From the NCBI GenBank assembly GCA_038882655.1, contig JAVZNT010000016.1, positions 1 to 21,687 on the forward strand: a stretch of 21,687 bases of DNA, read 5' to 3'. The stretch is from Candidatus Bathyarchaeia archaeon (GTDB taxonomy: Archaea; Thermoproteota; Bathyarchaeia; Bathyarchaeales; Bathycorpusculaceae). The notes below the pieces were generated by a model that was not told where the DNA came from, did not search any database, and saw only the letters and a list, made by a program, of their open reading frames with translations. This document shows, piece by piece, positions 24-13,961 of the stretch (position 1 is its first letter; the number at the start of each line of letters is the position of its first letter). A program made the translations under genes and the position numbers.

Positions 24-1397
24 CTAATAGGCTGATACGCCTACAAAGCGCAGTTTTTTCAGCTTAACCATTGGCACTGTCGAGGTTTCAAGGGTTACAA
101 GCTCTTTTCCAATCATCAGAATCTTTTTAAGGGCTGAGAGCATGCTGTCTGTAAAGCGCAAATTAACAATAGGCTTTATTATTTCGCCTTTTTCGATGAG
201 GAAGGTTCCGTCCCGCGTTAGCCCGGTCAATATGAGTTTTGTGGGTTCAACTGGGTTGACGTAGTGGAAGGTCGTGACGAATATTCCATGCTTTGTTTCC
301 GCAATTGCCTCTTCCAATGTGGCGTCTCCGGGCTTCATTAACATGTTGTAGGGTAGGGGCATCTCGCCAAAATAGTCGCCCAGGGGTGGAAGTGCATGCC
401 CGGTGCTTTTCTTGCCTTCTCTGCCCGCTGTGAAAGAGTTGTAGCATATGTTCTTCTCAGAAACCACGCCATTGGTTATGAGCTCTAATGGTTTCTTGGG
501 AACCCCTTCGCCGTCAACTGGCACAGCATACAATGTTTTTGGGTTTCTGGCGTCGTCAACAACGTTTAGTTTGCTGTCGAAGACTTGCTGGTCTGCCACG
601 TATTTAACAAATGACTGCCCGTCCTGGTAGGATTTGGCTGAAAAGCCCACATAACCCATATAGTCCAAAATAACCGACACAGCCAAAGGCGACAAAACAA
701 CCTCAAACTCGCCTGGTTCAACCTTCACCGGATGTAGGCTTCGAACAGATTTTTCTGCGGCGTCGTCAGCCAAAGCCGAAGGCTCAATTTCTTTAACCCT
801 TCTAGAATATTGCTGTGCTGCGCCGAAGCCTTCGGATTCTCCATTTTTTGATATAACTGTTGTTTTCATGTAAGCCAATGAAAGCTGAGCCCATGCTGAA
901 ACACCCAGCGAGTTGGCAACAGCATAACCCATCGAACCGGTTGAAAGGTATCCGGCGACGGCAGCCACTTTAGGCGACTTGGCGTGGGCTTTGTTTATGG
1001 CTTCCCTAACCCTTTCAGCCCTAAACTTCGGCGTGCACTCAGCCGTAGCCTTGTCAAAGGCACCCTTAACAGGTTTCCAGGCTTCTGGTTCTGGAAGGCT
1101 CTTAAACTCCTTGTTGGGCGATGAAGCCTTCGCGATTTTGACGGCTTGCTCCACAGCCTCCCTTATGCCCTTTTCCTCAAGCGTGTTAGCCTGAACAGTG
1201 CTTATCCGCTGGTCTAAAACAACCTTGATGGATACTCCGCCCATTTTTTGGGCAACGTTCTGGTGAATCTGAGAGTTTGCAAAACGTGTTAAGGCATTGT
1301 CCACCATGAACGCCACGGCTTGAGCTTGGCTAACCTTAAATTTTAATGCGTACTCAGCAGTCTTTTCAGCTATTTCCCTCAACCTTTCAACATCCAT
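24..1397 (-). CDS. pmbA: TldE/PmbA family protein (non-catalytic partner of TldD)
   Basis: 457 aa; TRFANSQIHQN, DGEGVP, TGHA and LTGLTRDG motifs; no HExxxH; SD AGGAGGG upstream; directly follows tldD. Confidence 0.9.
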   Translation of the reverse strand: MDVERLREIAEKTAEYALKFKVSQAQAVAFMVDNALTRFANSQIHQNVAQKMGGVSIKVVLDQRISTVQANTLEEKGIREAVEQAVKIAKASSPNKEFKSLPEPEAWKPVKGAFDKATAECTPKFRAERVREAINKAHAKSPKVAAVAGYLSTGSMGYAVANSLGVSAWAQLSLAYMKTTVISKNGESEGFGAAQQYSRRVKEIEPSALADDAAEKSVRSLHPVKVEPGEFEVVLSPLAVSVILDYMGYVGFSAKSYQDGQSFVKYVADQQVFDSKLNVVDDARNPKTLYAVPVDGEGVPKKPLELITNGVVSEKNICYNSFTAGREGKKSTGHALPPLGDYFGEMPLPYNMLMKPGDATLEEAIAETKHGIFVTTFHYVNPVEPTKLILTGLTRDGTFLIEKGEIIKPIVNLRFTDSMLSALKKILMIGKELVTLETSTVPMVKLKKLRFVGVSAY

Positions 1398-1410: not shown

Positions 1411-2859
1411 CTACCTTATCAGTCCAACATGGACTTTTCTGAAGCGGGCAGTGCCACATCCATGCCCAACATACATGACTTGTCCCGGCACACCCTTTCC
1501 ACAGTTTGGTGTTCCCCACATCTTCCAGTCGTCCTTGCTCACAGCGTCGCACGAACCCCAGAACTGGGGCGTCACACCCATATATGTTGGATTCTTAACC
1601 ATTTTCTCGCGGCTACCGTTCTTTATTAGCCAGCCTATTTCTGTGCCGAATTGGAAGTTTATGCGCTTGTCATCTATACTCCACGAGCGATTCGTCGTCA
1701 TCAAAACGCCATTGCGAGTGTCTTCAATTATTTCTTTAACCTTGTAGTCGCCTGGAAGCAGGTTAATGTTAGTCATTCGTATTAGGGGCAAAGCCATGGG
1801 CGAGTCAGCCCTCATGCCTCCGCTGCTTTCCTTAAGCCCAAGCTGAGCAGCGGTCTCCCTTGAACTTTGATAGCCTACAAAAATCCCTCTTCTTACGAGG
1901 TAAACCTTTTTAGCCTTCGTTCCCTCATCGTCAAAGCCAAAGGTTCCAAGCCCCAGCGGCACAGTGGCGTCAGCCACAATATTCACTTTCTCAGAGCCGT
2001 AACGGAATTTTCCACGCTTTTCAGGCGTTAGGAAACTTGTCCCAGCATAATCCGCCTCTGTTCCCAATACACGGTCAAGCTCCGTGGGGTGTCCACAACT
2101 CTCGTGAATCTGCAAAGCCAACTGGTCACCGCACAAAATCAAGTCCATCTTGTCGGATGGGCACTTCTCAGCCTCAAAAAGATGAATAAGCTCTTCCCCA
2201 ACAGTTTTTGCATGATCCATTAAGGCTAAAGACTCAAAGAACTCGTAGCCGCTTGTGGCGAAATCCCCCCTAAAAGCAGACGGATAAGACCTTATTTGGA
2301 CTTCTGAGCCTTTAATGGCTATTGCTGAGATTCCGCCGCCACACCATGTTATCTGTTGATCTATTTCTGCGCCTTCGCTACTCATGAAAAGCTTGTTTTC
2401 GCGGTAACCCCTATAGTGGGCATAGGAAACATTCACTAAAGGTGAAAACTCCTTCAAAAAGCGGCTGGCTTCAACAAGAACTTTCAGCTTTTCCTCCAAT
2501 GGCACCTTAAACGGGTCCTTCCTGAAACTTGTGGCGTACTTCTCGCGGTAAGTCTTCTCCTTCACTAGGGTTACGTCCCTCTTCTTAAGCATGGCGCTGG
2601 CTTTGGCTATGTTAACAGCCTTCTCGACGCAGCGTTTAACCTCATCTCTAGTAATATCTACTGAACCGGCAAAACCCCACGCACCATCAACGACGACTCT
2701 TACGCCGAAGCCCCCCGTTTGCGAGTAGGATATGATTTCTGGTTCACCGTTCTTCGCCGTCAAGTTTTCATTTAGGATTTCGCTTATTCTAATGTCAGCG
2801 TAGGATGCACCCCTCTTGCTAGCCTCTTCAAGGGCTAGTTTTCCAAAATCAACAGCCAT
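1411..2859 (-). CDS. tldD: TldD family metalloprotease
   Basis: HESCGHPTE (HExxxH) zinc motif, DDEG, RMTN and C-terminal CGKG; start moved to the ATG at 2859 because of SD GAGGAG upstream (ORF track starts at TTG 2925). Confidence 0.92.
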   Translation of the reverse strand: MAVDFGKLALEEASKRGASYADIRISEILNENLTAKNGEPEIISYSQTGGFGVRVVVDGAWGFAGSVDITRDEVKRCVEKAVNIAKASAMLKKRDVTLVKEKTYREKYATSFRKDPFKVPLEEKLKVLVEASRFLKEFSPLVNVSYAHYRGYRENKLFMSSEGAEIDQQITWCGGGISAIAIKGSEVQIRSYPSAFRGDFATSGYEFFESLALMDHAKTVGEELIHLFEAEKCPSDKMDLILCGDQLALQIHESCGHPTELDRVLGTEADYAGTSFLTPEKRGKFRYGSEKVNIVADATVPLGLGTFGFDDEGTKAKKVYLVRRGIFVGYQSSRETAAQLGLKESSGGMRADSPMALPLIRMTNINLLPGDYKVKEIIEDTRNGVLMTTNRSWSIDDKRINFQFGTEIGWLIKNGSREKMVKNPTYMGVTPQFWGSCDAVSKDDWKMWGTPNCGKGVPGQVMYVGHGCGTARFRKVHVGLIR

Positions 2860-2930
2860 CCCACGACACTCCTCATTCGGTCTAGAGCAGTTAAATATGT
2901 GAGGTTTGGTTTTAAGCTTTGGCAAAAGCG

Positions 2931-2942
2931 TAAAGTTTAAAG
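2931..2942 (+). promoter_or_regulatory. Putative BRE/TATA element for rpoH
   Basis: TAAAGTTTAAAG about 40-50 nt upstream of the ORF; similar AAAGTTTA/AAAGTTTTA elements precede the HAD gene (~5682) and the thiolase operon (~11020). Confidence 0.45.
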
Positions 2943-2982: not shown

Positions 2983-3549
2983 ATGAGGTTTAATGGTTTG
3001 AGTGTTGAGGAGGAAACCCTAGAAGAACGTAAAGCGAAAATTCTAATCAAGCTTAGGGGCTACAAACTCATCAAGAAAGAGAAGGTTAAAGACACGGCAA
3101 GCTACATTGTTGAAGCTCCAAAAGAGGAGAAAAAGAAAATCCTAATCTGGTGTGTTTCAGAAGAGACTGTTGGCATACTAACCATAAACCGCATGGCAAA
3201 AGCCATGAAAGAAGCCGAAATAGAACATGGAATTCTTATAGCAAGCGGACGCTACACCAATGCCGCAAAACAAACAGCAAAGAAAAAGCACATAGAGCTT
3301 CTACCAAAAACCTTCCCAGTCTTCGACATATTCGAACACAAGCTCGTGCCAAAACATGAAATTTTAACGCCAGAAGAACGAGAAAAAGTCCTAATCCAGT
3401 ATAGGGTAAAACCATACCAGCTGCCACAAATAAAAGCTTCAGACCCAGCAGCAAAAGCCATAGGCGCAAAACCAGGCGACATACTGCGCATAATAAGAAA
3501 AAGCCCAACAGCAGGCGAACATGTAGCCTATAGATACGTGGTGGAATAG
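2983..3549 (+). CDS. rpoH: DNA-directed RNA polymerase subunit Rpo5/RpoH with an extra ~110-aa N-terminal Rpb5-jaw-like (restriction-endonuclease-like) domain
   Basis: C-terminal [10 protein letters not shown]...[10 protein letters not shown]...[18 protein letters not shown]...YRYVV is the Rpo5/Rpb5 C-terminal domain; alternative start TTG at 2998 after GAGGT. Confidence 0.92.
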
Positions 3550-3559
3550 GCGAATAGGC

Positions 3560-3898
3560 TTATTGTTTGGCTTCTGCAAGCGCCTTGTTTAATAGGCTTT
3601 CCACATGCCTATACTCTTCTAATAGCGCTTTTCCAAAAGTTGTGAGCGTTGCGCCACCTCCGCCCTTTCGCCCTCCCCTATAAGTCTCTAATAATGGCTT
3701 GCCCAGCGTCTTCTCAACCCTCTTTATGTAACTCCAAACATAGCGATACGACATGCCAAGCCTTTTTGCAGCTCTCGATATGGAGTGTTCTCTTTCTATT
3801 TGTTCTAGGATTTGGGCTCCACCCTTCCCTATAAGCGGTTTTCCACGGTGTTCCAGCCATATTTTGAAGGACAGCTTGTGTTTTTTCTGGTTTTGCAT
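3560..3898 (-). CDS. ModE-type winged-helix transcriptional regulator (HTH only, no molybdate-binding TOBE domain)
   Basis: GKGGAQILEQI...SISRAAKRLGMSYRYVWSYI...RGGRKGGGATLT is the ModE N-terminal signature; 112 aa. Confidence 0.88.
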   Translation of the reverse strand: MQNQKKHKLSFKIWLEHRGKPLIGKGGAQILEQIEREHSISRAAKRLGMSYRYVWSYIKRVEKTLGKPLLETYRGGRKGGGGATLTTFGKALLEEYRHVESLLNKALAEAKQ

Positions 3899-9754: not shown

Positions 9755-10927
9755 TTATCCTCTCCTGTAGATGTGAACTGTAGCTGTGGCTCCTGAACCC
9801 CCAACATTATGGGTTAAGCCTATCTCCGCGTCTGCCACTTGCCGCCTGTCAGCTTGCCCGGTAAGCTGCAAGTATATCTCGTAAGCTTGGGCTGTTCCCG
9901 TGGCGCCTACTGGATGACCCTTTGCTTTTAGCCCTCCGCTTGTGTTGACTGGAATTCTGCCCTTCAATGTTGTTTCGCCTTTTTCTGCTATGCGTCCGCC
10001 TTCGCCCGGCTTGCAGAAGCCCAGGTCTTCGTAGGCTATTATCTCAGCTATAGTGAAGCAGTCATGCACCTCAGCCACTTCTATATCTTCTGGCGTTACA
10101 CCAGCCATTTCGTAGGCTTGTTTTGCGGCTAGTTTGGCGGCTCTAAGCGATGTGAAATCATCTCTTTCGTAGATGCCTATCGTGTCGCTCGCCTGTCCGC
10201 TTCCAATTATGTGGACTGGCGTGTCTGTGTACTTTTTGGCTATTTCAGGCTTTGTCAGTATGAGGCAGCTTGCCCCGTCAGTTATGAGTGAACAATCGTA
10301 GAGTTTTAGAGGCCAAGCAATAACCCGCGAGGATAGGGCCTGTTCTAGGGTTATTTCCTTCTGCATGTGCGCCTTCGGGTTTAGGCTTCCATTATAATGG
10401 TTTTTCACGGCAACATGAGCTAACTGCGCTTCTGTGGTGCCATACTTGTGCATGTGGGCCGTAGCCATCAATGCGAATAATCCTGGAAAGGTTATGCCAT
10501 GCCACTGTTCGAAGGGGAAATCTGAAGCCATAGCCAAAAACTCTGTGACTTCGGGAGTACTTCGATGAGTCATCTTCTCAACACCGCCAGCCATAACAAC
10601 ATCACACAAGCCCGAAGCAACCGCAAATACGGCTGCCCTTAAGGCTGCGCCAGAAGAGCTGCAAGCCGCCTCAGTTCTCGTTGCCGGTATATGCATTAAG
10701 CCAGCCCAGTCTGCCGCTGTGGCGCCAGTGTGCCCTTGATGCTCATAGGATTCACCCATATGCCCAATAAAAAGGGCTTTTATATCTTTTTTAGGGTCTA
10801 GTTTCGGGCAGCGTTCATAAGCCTCCTTTGCCGCTTGGGCGAAAATCTCGCGGGCGTATAAGCCTTCAAGTTTTCCGAACTTTGATAAGCCTGCAGAAAC
10901 TATTGAGGCTAGGGGTTTTCCCTTCAA
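9755..10927 (-). CDS. Archaeal/SCP2-type acetyl-CoA C-acyltransferase (thiolase), catalytic residues intact
   Basis: EAACSSSG nucleophile Cys89, HDCF, GHPVGATG, HNVGG; TTG start. Confidence 0.92.
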   Translation of the reverse strand: MKGKPLASIVSAGLSKFGKLEGLYAREIFAQAAKEAYERCPKLDPKKDIKALFIGHMGESYEHQGHTGATAADWAGLMHIPATRTEAACSSSGAALRAAVFAVASGLCDVVMAGGVEKMTHRSTPEVTEFLAMASDFPFEQWHGITFPGLFALMATAHMHKYGTTEAQLAHVAVKNHYNGSLNPKAHMQKEITLEQALSSRVIAWPLKLYDCSLITDGASCLILTKPEIAKKYTDTPVHIIGSGQASDTIGIYERDDFTSLRAAKLAAKQAYEMAGVTPEDIEVAEVHDCFTIAEIIAYEDLGFCKPGEGGRIAEKGETTLKGRIPVNTSGGLKAKGHPVGATGTAQAYEIYLQLTGQADRRQVADAEIGLTHNVGGSGATATVHIYRRG

Positions 10928-11085: not shown

Positions 11086-12243
11086 ATGAGCGAAGTGGCA
11101 ATTGTTGGTGTTGGATGTGTCGGCTTCAGACCAATAACACCAGAGCTTTCCTATAAGGAGTTGATGTTTGAGGCGGCTGTTAAAGCCTATGAGGATGCCG
11201 GCGGAATAAACCCGAGAAAGGACATAGACGTCTTCGTAACATGCGCCGAAGACTATTTGGAAGGCTTCAGCATATTCGACGAGTTCGTCCCAGACCAGCT
11301 TGGCGCAGCCCTACGCCACCTGTTCACGGTTTCCGGCGACGGCATGCTTGGACTGGCAACGGCTTACATGCTAATAAAGACCGGCTATTTTGACACTGTT
11401 GTGGTGGAAGCCCACAGCAAAGCCTCCGACATACTAACATACATGGACATTGTGCAGTTCGGACTTGACCCGATTTTTAACAGGCCTTTAGGCGGGCATC
11501 CCTACTACATTGCTGGTTTGGAGATGAACCGTTATTTGCATGATACTGGCACGACTGAGAAGCAGTGCGCCCAAGTTGTCGTCAAAAACAGGAGAAACGC
11601 CATACTGAACCCGTATGCAGCTTATGGTGCAGACATAACTCTAGACCAAGTCATGCATTCAGAGAAGCTTTTCCATCCACTGAAAAAGTTGGAGATAAGC
11701 ACACCGGCAGACGGCTGCATAGTCTTGGTTCTAGCCTCTGAAAAGGTTGCTGAAAAGCTTACCGACAAGCCCGTCTGGGTTAAGGGTGTGGGATGGTGCA
11801 CTGAAACCCCAAGCCTAGAAACAAGAGATTGGACAAGGGCTGTTTACACGAGGCTGGCGGCTGAAATGGCCTACAAGGAGGCTAAAATCACCAATCCTTG
11901 GCGTGATATAGACTTCGCAGAAATCCACGACATGTTCACCTACAAAGAGTTGCAGCACATGGAAGCTCTAAAACTGTGTGATTATGGCATGGCTGGCAAA
12001 CTAACAGAGGAAGGTCTAACAGCCCTAGACGGTGAGTTCCCAGTAAACCCGTCTGGAGGGTTGCTTGGAATGGGTTATGGGCTGGAGGCTTCTGGACTAC
12101 AGAAAGTGCTTGAAGTCGTTTTACAGCTCAGGGGCGAGGCTGGTGCAAGGCAAGTTGAAGACGCAGAAGCGGGGTTAGCCCACACATGGCGTGGAATCCC
12201 AACGGCAACAGGTGCAGTGGCAGTTTTAAGCAACGTTAAGTAG
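11086..12243 (+). CDS. Thiolase-fold protein lacking the catalytic Cys and His
   Basis: Thiolase fold motifs (VKNRRNA, ADG, VNPSGG, QLRGEAG.RQV) but SGDG in place of the Cys loop and GYG in place of GHP. Confidence 0.88.
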   Translation: MSEVAIVGVGCVGFRPITPELSYKELMFEAAVKAYEDAGGINPRKDIDVFVTCAEDYLEGFSIFDEFVPDQLGAALRHLFTVSGDGMLGLATAYMLIKTGYFDTVVVEAHSKASDILTYMDIVQFGLDPIFNRPLGGHPYYIAGLEMNRYLHDTGTTEKQCAQVVVKNRRNAILNPYAAYGADITLDQVMHSEKLFHPLKKLEISTPADGCIVLVLASEKVAEKLTDKPVWVKGVGWCTETPSLETRDWTRAVYTRLAAEMAYKEAKITNPWRDIDFAEIHDMFTYKELQHMEALKLCDYGMAGKLTEEGLTALDGEFPVNPSGGLLGMGYGLEASGLQKVLEVVLQLRGEAGARQVEDAEAGLAHTWRGIPTATGAVAVLSNVK

Positions 12244-12259: not shown

Positions 12260-13426
12260 ATGTTTGGGAAGAAGAGGGTAGCCATAGTTGGTGCAGGCGT
12301 AACCCTATTCAGAAGAAATTTGAAAGAGACTGGAAAGGAGCTGTCGTACCACGCGGCTAAAATGGCTTTGGAACAAGCGGGAATGGAGCTCCGCGACATC
12401 CAAAGCGTCGTCATGGGAACAGCGCCAGACGCCTTTGACGGAGTTCACATGAAAGGCGAATATTTGGCGGATGGGGCTGGAGCCTACCACAAACCATACA
12501 CAAGGGTTTATGTTGGCGGCGGAACAGGTGTTTTTACGCCTTTGGCTGGATGGTGGCATGTAGCCTCTGGACAATTTGACACGTGCCTTGTTGTCTGCGA
12601 GGAGAAGATGTCTTCATGTTATCCGCATCCACAGTACGCCTTCACAACAATATTTGACCCGATTCTTGAACGCCCCATTGGCATGAACCTCATATGGATT
12701 TTCGCCTTGGAAATGAACCGTTACATGCACAAGCACAACATAAAGAAGGAGGACATAGCCTTAGTCTCCGTTAAAAACAAACGGAACGCCCTAGACAACC
12801 CCATAGCCCAGTTGGCCGCCAACATAACGGTGGAAGAAGTCTTAAACTCTGAAATAATGGCTTGGCCAGTCCAACGCTTAGATGTTAGCCCAACAAGTGA
12901 CGGAGCCGCCGCAGCAGTGCTTGTCTCCGAAGACGTTGCAAAAGAGGTTACAGACAACCCCGTGTGGATTGATGGTGTTGGCTGGTGTATAGACTCAACC
13001 CATTGGACTGACCGCGACTTGTATTATCCGGACTATGTGGAGTATGCAGCTCGCATGGCTTACAAAATGGCTGGAATCAAAAACCCGCCCAAAGAGATTG
13101 ATGTGGCGGAGCCTTACGACCCCTTTGACTATAAGGAGTTGCATCACATGGAGGGCTTACTCTTGTGCAAGAAGGGTGAAGCGCCAAAACTAACAAGGGA
13201 AGGCGTAACCCAAAGGGACGGAGACTTGCCAACATGCCCCTCTGGCGGACTTCTGGGATGCGGCAACCCTATAGCAGCGGCTGGCATGATGAAAGTTTGC
13301 GAAATCTTCTGGCAACTGCGAGGCGAAGCTGGCAAGAGACAGGTGCCCGGAGACCCAAGAACCGGCGTGGCACAAGCGTGGGGTGACCTAATGCAGTACG
13401 GCTCCGTAATAGTGTTAAGACGCTGA
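12260..13426 (+). CDS. Thiolase-fold protein lacking the catalytic Cys and His
   Basis: VGGGTG in place of the Cys loop, YDPF in place of HDCF, GNP in place of GHP; SD GGAGGTGA upstream. Confidence 0.88.
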   Translation: MFGKKRVAIVGAGVTLFRRNLKETGKELSYHAAKMALEQAGMELRDIQSVVMGTAPDAFDGVHMKGEYLADGAGAYHKPYTRVYVGGGTGVFTPLAGWWHVASGQFDTCLVVCEEKMSSCYPHPQYAFTTIFDPILERPIGMNLIWIFALEMNRYMHKHNIKKEDIALVSVKNKRNALDNPIAQLAANITVEEVLNSEIMAWPVQRLDVSPTSDGAAAAVLVSEDVAKEVTDNPVWIDGVGWCIDSTHWTDRDLYYPDYVEYAARMAYKMAGIKNPPKEIDVAEPYDPFDYKELHHMEGLLLCKKGEAPKLTREGVTQRDGDLPTCPSGGLLGCGNPIAAAGMMKVCEIFWQLRGEAGKRQVPGDPRTGVAQAWGDLMQYGSVIVLRR

Positions 13427-13445: not shown

Positions 13446-13961
13446 ATGAGCGTTAAGATTAAGCATTTTCCGGGCGAGGAGATTGAGACAAAAGACTTCC
13501 GCGAGGGAAAAGTACTCTTCGAGAGTTTTCATCCAAAAGCCAAGTACGCTTGGAGTGCTGGCATAGCCATAAGCCGATTCCTAGAAGAGCTTAAGAACGG
13601 CCGAATTATTGCCACCACATGCAGTAAGTGCAAGCGCATAATGGTTCCGCCACGAATTTATTGCGAAAAGTGCTTCAAGCCGACGGACGGTTGGACCTAT
13701 GTAAAGGATACCGGCGTAATCAACACATTCTCAGTCTCGTTCTTAGCGGCTGATGCTTCTAGGTTGAAGGAGCCCATAGTGGTGGCTATCATAAATTTGG
13801 ACGGCGCCTCAGAGGGCATGGGAATAGTCCACCGCATAGAAGAGTATGGCGACTGGAAGGAAATCAAAATCGGCATGCGAGTCAAAGCCGTCTGGAAGCC
13901 GCCAGAAGAGCGCACAGGAGCCATCACAGACATAAAATACTTCAAACCCATAAAGGAGTGA
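13446..13961 (+). CDS. DUF35/ChsH2-type Zn-ribbon OB-fold protein
   Basis: CSKC...VPPRIYCEKC, GVINTFS, IKIGMRVKAVW; SD AGGAGG. Confidence 0.92.
   Translation: MSVKIKHFPGEEIETKDFREGKVLFESFHPKAKYAWSAGIAISRFLEELKNGRIIATTCSKCKRIMVPPRIYCEKCFKPTDGWTYVKDTGVINTFSVSFLAADASRLKEPIVVAIINLDGASEGMGIVHRIEEYGDWKEIKIGMRVKAVWKPPEERTGAITDIKYFKPIKE

Follow-up and report, generated by a model that had tools for sequence, protein, structure and literature searches.

The rpoH locus and its assembly domain

The window, that is, the whole stretch of DNA analyzed here, comprises 21,687 nucleotides (nt; positions 1 to 21,687, forward strand) of contig JAVZNT010000016.1 from the Candidatus Bathyarchaeia archaeon assembly GCA_038882655.1. 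It contains rpoH (rpo5), which encodes the archaeal RNA polymerase (RNAP) subunit corresponding to eukaryotic Rpb5. The original prediction, made from the sequence alone, had described this gene as an open reading frame (ORF) of 188 amino acids (aa) with approximately 110 extra N-terminal residues resembling the jaw domain of eukaryotic Rpb5. Both the ORF and its extension were confirmed: solved archaeal RpoH chains, which are 77-84 aa long, align with residues 113-188 and nothing further, and eukaryotic Rpb5 chains align from residue 30-57 onward, i.e., into the N-terminal extension. The features of the locus are as follows.

2936..2941, + strand: possible archaeal TATA box (TTTAAA), as read from the sequence
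2983..3549, + strand: longest ORF, rpoH/rpo5 as first delimited, with ATG at 2983 and stop codon at 3547-3549
2985..2989, + strand: Shine-Dalgarno-like GAGGT
2998..3546, + strand: probable true coding sequence with TTG start, 183 aa
3019..3303, + strand: N-terminal jaw-like domain, residues 13-107 (188-aa numbering), delimited from AlphaFold2 models, Pfam, structural matches, and lost catalytic columns
3304..3321, + strand: short linker between the domains (..LPKTFP..), with P108 and P112 invariant in 20 sequences
3322..3546, + strand: C-terminal assembly domain, canonical RpoH/Rpb5_C, residues 114-188, identified from PF01191, NF007129, and structures

The assembly domain is archaeal in type, unlike that of eukaryotic Rpb5. 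Residues 114-186 match the Pfam family RNA_pol_Rpb5_C (PF01191) over the full model (positions 1-73) with an E value of 1.1e-31 and 108.8 bits (cut-off 23.5), and residues 114-188 match the NCBIfam RpoH equivalog NF007129 with 112.5 bits (cut-off 83). Comparison with solved archaeal RpoH chains gave 56-63% identity and a root-mean-square deviation of 1.2-1.6 Å; these canonical subunits (4qiw_H, 7ok0_H, 8cro_H, and 2waq_H) have the same assembly domain. This was the single Rpb5_C match in the whole genome (1.02 Mb, 84% complete), and the gene encodes the sole Rpo5/RpoH found there, although a second copy may lie in the part missing from the assembly. Its assembly domain anchors the subunit to the largest polymerase subunit. 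Unlike the window protein, archaeal RpoH is described in the relevant parts of two papers as lacking any N-terminal domain, with the jaw given as eukaryote-specific (PMC3906176; PMC2675907).

In order to place the start codon, 21 loci were examined and 19 were counted, the window included; L036 and L037 yielded no anchor motif and were not counted. The true start is probably TTG at 2998, giving a protein of 183 aa, because the TTG-AGY at this position is conserved in all 19 loci, GAGGT lies 8 nt 5' of it (exact in 16 loci, GGGGT in 2, and GAGGG in 1), ATG at 2983 is present in just 3, and an in-frame stop occurs no more than 15 codons 5' of the TTG in 5 (one to two codons 5' in L017, L025, and L050; five codons 5' in L044). 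Lengths of the homologues are mostly 181-184 aa. The TTTAAA hexamer lies approximately 45 nt 5' of the ATG, and its ends are 57-62 nt 5' of the TTG. The ratio of nonsynonymous to synonymous substitution rates (dN/dS) was 0.08-0.10 for the N-terminal (N) domain (three unsaturated pairs of six tried) and 0.04-0.06 for the C-terminal (C) domain (two unsaturated pairs of six tried), with the remaining pairs saturated. An artefact or chance ORF is ruled out by these values together with conservation across relatives.

Fold and active-site columns of the N-terminal domain

The domain that precedes the assembly domain matches two Pfam families above their cut-offs, NA-iREase1 (PF22722; E 4.7e-10, 39.8 bits vs. 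a cut-off of 27) and Mrr_cat (PF04471; E 2e-8, 34.8 bits vs. a cut-off of 21). Taken alone, the N domain is closest to this Mrr_cat/NA-iREase1 group (1y88, AF1548) by Pfam, profile comparison, and structure. NA-iREase1 has been described with NACHT NTPases; its partner here is the Rpb5_C domain of a polymerase subunit. Active Mrr domains keep an E...D...QxK constellation that the window N domain does not. When the catalytic columns were read from a MAFFT alignment of 94 N domains, the 29 generic Mrr rows retained E in 25, D in 26, Q in 24, and K in 25, whereas all 14 Bathyarchaeia rows carried V, L, or I in the K column and W, R, H, V, or F in the Q/E column, with D retained in only 2. The 13 eukaryotic rows all have V in the Q column and F or W in the K column. 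The absence of a PD-(D/E)xK or QxK motif that the original prediction had noted is thus borne out, and the N domain is an Mrr-type restriction-endonuclease fold without catalytic residues, which cannot be a nuclease. Loss of these columns rules out an active enzyme.

AlphaFold2 models built with a 20-sequence alignment had predicted local distance difference test (pLDDT) scores of 83.5 for the full-length protein and 89.1 for residues 1-110 alone, and the predicted order of elements in the N domain, alpha-beta-beta-beta-alpha-beta-alpha-beta, is that of the restriction-endonuclease core. A Foldseek search of the PDB with the full-length model returned as its top 32 matches Rpb5-type chains spanning both domains, 30 of eukaryotic Rpb5 and 2 of its African swine fever virus (ASFV) homologue; archaeal RpoH chains cover 75 columns of the same model. 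Superposition on eukaryotic Rpb5, proposed as a check with the yeast protein, succeeded over both domains, the best match having an E value of 1.5e-15 and a TMq of 0.75 over 202 columns. In a library of viral structures, giant-virus Rpb5 homologues ranked top against the full model (TMq 0.77-0.78).

A profile of 20 N domains was searched against 177,635 PDB sequences, and eukaryotic Rpb5 chains were the only matches with E < 0.01 (5.8e-6 for a Drosophila entry, 0.0025 for mammals, and 0.0088 for Arabidopsis). The HMMER alignment with Arabidopsis Rpb5 (7eu0_E) takes in the N domain, the linker, and the assembly domain and is ungapped at the domain junction; the two linkers are of equal length there, an equality seen in that alignment alone. 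Bit scores were 92 over approximately 75 residues against Thermococcus RpoH and 88 over both domains against plant Rpb5. The segments that had been paired by eye with Rpb5 were reproduced in the same register by both HMMER and MAFFT against eukaryotic Rpb5 (LIKLRGY with ..DRGY, EETVGILTI with DEPKIGIKTI, HGILIA with RAIIVV, and YTNAAKQ with MTPSAKQ). Judged from the profile search, the correspondence of the N domain with eukaryotic Rpb5 is more than chance.

Eukaryotic Rpb5 (RPABC1 of RNA polymerases I, II, and III; 1dzf, 5xog_E, 5flm_E, and 7eu0_E) has the same domain order, a dead restriction-endonuclease-like N domain followed by Rpb5_C, and has in common with the window protein RGY at the end of helix 1, the motif (V/I)G(V/I), and a strand-helix stretch of the form ..ILV..(T)..A(K). 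The two differ in length, with an N domain of approximately 105 aa here and 130-135 aa in eukaryotes. In the MAFFT alignment the eukaryotic jaw appears as the archaeal core with an insert of approximately 25 residues after helix 1 and a further 5 residues near the jaw end, both of which the window protein lacks. Giant-virus (Nucleocytoviricota) Rpb5, as represented by ASFV 8q3b_E and by Marseillevirus, Pithovirus, and Tunisvirus entries of BFVD, also has two domains in approximately 190-230 aa and superposes on the model over both of them with TMq up to 0.78, but is far more diverged in sequence (12-27% identity over 38 Rpb5-type rows). The statement that holds is that this archaeon has a two-domain Rpo5 with a dead nuclease-like N domain at the same place in the chain as the Rpb5 jaw.

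Distribution and origin of the two-domain form

Homology searches yielded 1677 proteins of 103-329 aa at E <= 0.001, and the extra domain was present in 119 of the 120 listed. The close relatives are metagenome-assembled genomes labeled Candidatus Bathyarchaeia or Bathyarchaeota, many of them from hot springs. Among 40 of these, 36 match the full-length query and 34 have an ORF spanning both domains; relative G007 has a piece at a contig end only, and G032 has a C-terminal piece together with a weak N-domain-only match on another contig. In a 300-genome sample of the phylum, both domains were present in each of the 34 genomes from the window's order, and in one of these genomes they were in two pieces. 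Nine genomes in that sample are Bathyarchaeia of other orders, and these gave eight C-domain-only matches and one genome without a match. The reading that the phylum sample invited, that the fusion is confined to one order, was overturned by a class sample of 200 genomes searched with an N-domain profile, which detected the N domain in every one of the 50 genomes from the window's order and in 64 of 150 belonging to other orders. By family, it was present, for example, in 42 of 43 genomes (f62), 7 of 7 (f59), and 5 of 5 (f60), and in none of the 22, 14, and 9 genomes of f72, f13, and f17, respectively. Some of the weakest matches from the other orders (E 1e-5 to 1e-8) may represent paralogues instead of rpoH itself. 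The fusion, whose absence from related genomes would have spoken against the original prediction, is fixed in the sampled order and present well beyond it. In one genome of the same order (G296:C43:7567-8220) the N- and C-domain matches are separate, on the same strand and approximately 80 nt apart; a frameshift, a misassembly, or a split gene could each account for this.

Two-domain proteins also occur under Asgard names. A search with a profile built from 18 divergent long forms brought up 255 proteins, and the two-domain proteins named by NCBI among the 120 listed include those of Kariarchaeaceae (188 aa), Heimdallarchaeota (277 aa), Heimdallarchaeaceae (219 and 280 aa), and Jordarchaeales (218 aa). 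Cluster look-ups added Thorarchaeota and one further Heimdallarchaeota two-domain protein. The assignment to Asgard archaea is that of the names in NCBI records, and for several divergent long forms (P0161, P0164, P0167, P0190, P0200, and P0207, among others) the cluster look-ups gave no taxon names. The Asgard-named RpoH proteins (P0317, P0396, P0403, P0409, P0405, and the P0371 and P0175 clusters) have the same Mrr_cat/NA-iREase1 and Rpb5_C architecture, with a core of approximately 176-220 aa and a likewise dead active site. Their N domains are approximately 20-30% identical to those of Bathyarchaeia, as estimated by eye from the alignment, and are acidic to neutral. Heimdall-type proteins additionally carry C-terminal tails that are lysine/alanine/proline-rich (histone H1-like) or acidic. 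The original prediction, which saw relevance to the origin of eukaryotic RNA polymerases, is supported in part; the Asgard occurrences strengthen that link beyond what the Bathyarchaeia copy alone provides, and the two-domain form is of clear interest for how the eukaryotic transcription machinery arose.

The domain may have gone unnoticed in part because automatic annotation often calls only the 85-91 aa C-terminal part within ORFs of 186-206 aa. In the Thorarchaeota cluster (P0371), NCBI calls are of 85 aa and JGI and ENA calls are of 186-206 aa, with one short and long pair of calls on contigs of identical size; in a Bathyarchaeia cluster (P0159), a 91-aa NCBI call stands against a call of 189 aa. 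Over these two clusters, both at 90% identity, the long calls come from JGI, ENA, and Logan. We infer from such pairs that model-guided start selection often hides the N domain. Gene callers that rely on the short RpoH model can cut such genes short, and annotation-based surveys of polymerase subunits then miss the domain. Atlas clusters labeled with both Rpb5_C and Mrr_cat are assigned to Bathyarchaeota and Nucleocytoviricota with few labeled members; those of Nucleocytoviricota carry Mrr_cat and/or Rpb5_N labels, and their taxon labels rest on 3 to 25 members. A scan of viral_contigs with the full-length alignment found no giant-virus relatives (64 pattern matches, none confirmed).

In this genome rpoH is not part of the polymerase operon, which lies on another contig in the order 71-aa ORF without a family, rpoB (1121 aa), rpoA (1273 aa), a ribosomal protein of the L7Ae/L30e family (PF01248), and a KH-domain NusA. 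The largest subunit is encoded by one unsplit gene rather than by A' and A'' (contig C18, L071:2811-6632, - strand). The 71-aa ORF occupies the usual place of rpoH, 5' of rpoB, but is ruled out as an rpoH relic, having neither a Pfam family nor any profile similarity. Short-form Bathyarchaeia of other orders differ from the window in having rpoH directly 5' of rpoB (three of three), and rpoB was absent from the flanks of all 48 long-form loci (flanks of up to 3 kb, some of them ending at contig ends).

In our view the N domain probably corresponds, on the archaeal side, to the Rpb5 jaw and derives from a dead Mrr-type nuclease that the polymerase recruited to its lower jaw; we also lean toward the fusion being homologous with that of eukaryotic Rpb5. 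The short, length-conserved linker would hold the N domain on the assembly domain, and the former would take the place of the Rpb5 jaw at the downstream end of the cleft; the lower-jaw location is suggested by the fold, the linker, and published structures of Pol II and of the Sulfolobus polymerase. In the Sulfolobus structure paper of Korkhin et al. (2009; PMC2675907), the Rpb5 jaw of eukaryotes is said to fill part of the Rpo13 site and to bind downstream DNA. Rpo13 of Sulfolobales is a likely functional analogue by location, although it is an unrelated helix-turn-helix (HTH) protein and a separate subunit. The Bathyarchaeia N domain is basic (isoelectric point, pI, 9.4-9.6; net charge +4 to +8), in keeping with direct binding of DNA, and with this charge it most likely touches the downstream duplex. 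Such contact would help to hold or open the promoter and to stabilize elongation complexes, and initiation factors may also dock on the domain. The details are likely to vary from lineage to lineage, Heimdall-type domains being acidic and accompanied by lysine-rich or acidic C-terminal tails.

As to origin, the two-domain Rpo5 would have arisen through capture of a dead Mrr-type nuclease, and that form would have been the ancestor of eukaryotic and giant-virus Rpb5, with the eukaryotic branch gaining its insert of approximately 25 residues after the first helix. The distribution may have come about in three ways: through an old two-domain gene that was lost in places, through the N-domain module spreading, or through independent captures. 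A single old origin that includes the eukaryotic line is favored, with moderate support, because of the same position, the same dead site, the linker match with Arabidopsis, and the presence in Asgard-named proteins. We would give roughly even chances to the jaw being an archaeal invention that predates eukaryotes, persists in Asgard archaea (Heimdall, Thor, and Jord) and much of Bathyarchaeia, and was inherited by eukaryotes and giant viruses.

A number of results count against equating this domain with the Rpb5 jaw. The Pfam jaw model RNA_pol_Rpb5_N (PF03871) gave no match at E <= 10 for the window protein or for any of 20 N domains, unlike eukaryotic Rpb5, whereas Mrr_cat and NA-iREase1 were each matched by all 20. 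The comparison of Rpb5_N with Mrr_cat that had been proposed as a check places the N domain with Mrr_cat and does not identify it specifically as Rpb5_N; likewise, the claim of a full-length two-domain Rpb5 in an archaeon stands for the architecture and not for the identity of the N domain. In hhalign comparisons, Bathyarchaeia N domains were far closer to generic Mrr (E 1.6e-23) than to the eukaryotic jaws (90-92% probability, E 1.6e-6), and the latter matched generic Mrr about equally well (E 1.9e-7). When the N domain alone was compared with 48,161 chains by VIA-align, the Mrr-like AF1548 came first (Z 11.3) and NucS second (Z 10.6), followed by Arabidopsis Rpb5 (Z 9.1, 101 residues); by Foldseek, EndoMS came first (2.4e-5), with Rpb5 chains next (1.8e-4, 72-78 columns). 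Because Pol II structures formed part of AlphaFold's training data, the agreement of the full-length model in domain arrangement may be partly learned and is weaker as evidence than it first appears. N domains of the Heimdall type and most of those in eukaryotes are acidic (pI approximately 5), unlike the basic domain of Bathyarchaeia, and charge thus gives no clear sign of a common role in DNA binding. The distribution also has gaps: 4 of the 40 close relatives had no match to the full-length query (completeness 86, 97, 98, and 76%), other classes in the phylum sample had the C domain only among the rows listed, and the N-domain profile did not find the domain in 86 of the 150 other-order Bathyarchaeia genomes, a patchy pattern. 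Caveats on the jaw-versus-Mrr comparison cut both ways. PF03871 has 89 positions, covering helix 1, the eukaryotic insert, and the first strands and leaving the best-conserved half of the jaw outside the model. The eukaryotic jaw profile for hhalign contained 13 sequences, and the generic Mrr set was chosen by its similarity to the Bathyarchaeia profile.

Phylogenies of both domains, which the original prediction had called for, gave mixed results. A maximum-likelihood tree of the N domains (92 rows and 111 columns, after removal of two Mrr rows that were long or compositionally odd) placed 27 generic Mrr domains on one side of a 100/98 branch and all RNAP-linked N domains, the eukaryotic ones included, on the other. 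The same tree leaves the sister group of the eukaryotic jaw unplaced, and an approximately unbiased (AU) test, uninformative on this point, did not reject a grouping of eukaryotic jaws with generic Mrr (difference in log-likelihood 0.66, p 0.46), both of which weaken the case. The concern that the N domain would cluster with Mrr nucleases is partly realized, in the Pfam matches, in hhalign, in the AF1548 match, and in the AU test, but it carries limited weight, since the eukaryotic jaw has itself diverged within this fold class and PF03871 covers just the first part of the jaw. The C-domain tree (78 rows, 78 columns; bootstrap not fully settled) is star-like and lends no help, having no power to tell vertical descent from transfer. 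It contains separate groups for eukaryotes (99/97), Heimdall and Kari (99/92), a Thor-containing set (95/87), and the window's Bathyarchaeia (83/86), and no grouping of Bathyarchaeia with Asgard archaea.

The most serious alternative is convergence, in which dead Mrr domains were fused independently in Bathyarchaeia, Asgard archaea, and the eukaryote/giant-virus line; the Bathyarchaeia domain might then still act in a jaw-like manner, yet would be neither ancestor nor homologue of the eukaryotic fusion. We regard this as rather unlikely, if well short of negligible. It draws on the hhalign comparisons, in which archaeal N domains are nearer to generic Mrr (1.6e-23 for Bathyarchaeia, 6e-18 for Heimdall-type) than to the jaws or to each other (2.8e-12), on the AU test, and on the patchy distribution in Bathyarchaeia and the phylum. 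The absence of rpoB from the flanks of all 48 long-form loci, as against rpoH-rpoB adjacency in all three short-form loci, points to lineage-specific rearrangement, and dead Mrr modules are evidently mobile, being found in a paralogue with a Cys-rich domain and in multi-copy forms of 436-481 aa. Against convergence, every lineage has the N-terminal position, the dead active site, and the short linker, and the 100/98 branch separates all RNAP-linked N domains from the 27 generic Mrr domains closest to them. Heimdall-type N domains moreover have sub-threshold Rpb5_N matches in six of eight proteins scanned (none was obtained for the window protein), share a P..P.(V/I)GVKTIR stretch with eukaryotes, and, pooled with other divergent long forms, match the eukaryotic jaws in hhalign with 96.6% probability (E 6.1e-10, 91-97 columns).

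Horizontal transfer, by which the two-domain gene or its N module came from an Asgard or other donor, settled at a new locus, and displaced the short rpoH of an rpoH-rpoB-rpoA operon, seems to us improbable. The position of the long gene outside the polymerase operon, where rpoB is preceded by a 71-aa ORF without a family match, and the lack of rpoB at any long-form locus would suit it, as would the N-domain tree, in which Jordarchaeales and Thorarchaeota-type N domains fall on the Bathyarchaeia side. The assembly domain tells otherwise: in the C-domain tree the path from the window protein to short Bathyarchaeia RpoH is approximately 0.19-0.21 (summed branch lengths), compared with approximately 0.36 to Jordarchaeales, the row-by-row nearest neighbours are all long-form Bathyarchaeia, and the Bathyarchaeia-Asgard grouping is absent. 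Identity between the window assembly domain and short RpoH from other orders of Bathyarchaeia is 61-73%, which gives no pointer to a foreign origin, although values up to 70% are also seen with other classes of the phylum. Transfer of the N-domain module alone is possible. A working restriction or defence nuclease, or a NACHT-type conflict module, fused to RpoH merits almost no credence. Its appeal lies in the Pfam matches themselves (Mrr_cat and NA-iREase1, the latter described from NACHT conflict systems), and it is contradicted by the Bathyarchaeia rows, with catalytic K and Q/E absent in 14 of 14 and D kept in 2 of 14. No NACHT or other STAND NTPase domain was found in the protein or in 13 other window ORFs scanned; the scanned flanking ORFs encode a PmbA/TldD peptidase, an HTH protein, and a TauE exporter. 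Being the only rpoH found in the genome, fixed across the order, and under strong purifying selection, the gene fits a core housekeeping subunit.

If the jaw reading is correct, the two-domain Rpo5 moves one more "eukaryotic" polymerase feature back into Archaea, and the jaw gains a concrete origin in a disarmed restriction nuclease. Jaw function would also become testable in a simpler system, in which the long subunit is compared with that of natural short-form relatives for promoter opening, downstream DNA, and factor binding. A survey of the PD-(D/E)XK superfamily enters Rpb5_N as Eukaryota-only in the section that lists it (PMC3424549), and a 2026 survey of archaeal polymerase subunits, which treats Rpo6 and Rpo8 and models a Bathyarchaeota Rpo5, does not mention the long form in the parts covered (PMC13257274). 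A literature search with subscription journals and supplementary tables (e.g., those of Asgard genome papers) mostly outside its coverage found no account of a long Rpo5 in archaea. Others may nevertheless have noticed the architecture, since it can be seen in precomputed Pfam annotations.

Related architectures and neighboring genes

The same dead nuclease domain occurs in other contexts. In a paralogue family of approximately 190-280 aa (L066, at G032:C106:22440-22991, L067, L068, and L069; P0157, P0165, P0166, P0178, P0208, P0215, P0240, and P0244) it is joined to a conserved Cys-rich C-terminal domain with motifs such as LC..KCG.IPK...C.GY and IRL.SDNADFH and no significant Pfam family. 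This paralogue is present in 6 of the 40 relatives and not in the window's genome, and in the N-domain tree it nests within a Bathyarchaeia RpoH-N subclade (93/92); P0157 has a weak TFIIB-type zinc-ribbon match at its N terminus. Tandem dead-nuclease domains, two or three in number, precede Rpb5_C in P0239 (436 aa), P0198 (481 aa), P0210 (222 aa), and P0202 (456 aa), the last of which has three Rpb5_N repeats and looks eukaryotic. Among the Heimdall-type tails, those of P0396, P0409, P0393, P0399, P0401, and P0407 include some with short K/A/P/T-rich repeats and a weak match to HC2 (histone H1-like), and those of P0403, P0394, and P0315 are acidic.

The neighbors of rpoH in the window are a gene for a PmbA/TldD peptidase (1411..2925, - strand) and one for a small HTH protein (3560..3898, - strand), the latter followed by the TauE exporter. 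An Rfam scan of the window gave no match, and no tRNA was found. Two antisense ORFs lie inside rpoH on the - strand (3236..3508, 90 aa, and 3252..3491, 79 aa); their translations are Leu-/Cys-rich and of low complexity, and they are most likely not genes. Two PmbA/TldD paralogues stand side by side at 24..1397 and 1411..2925. Farther along, three thiolase-like genes (9755..10927 on the - strand, 11086..12243 and 12260..13426 on the + strand) are followed by a ChsH2-type zinc-ribbon/OB-fold protein gene (13446..13961), a thiolase with a zinc-ribbon/OB-fold protein being the usual partnership in archaeal acetoacetyl-CoA thiolase/HMG-CoA synthase-type complexes.

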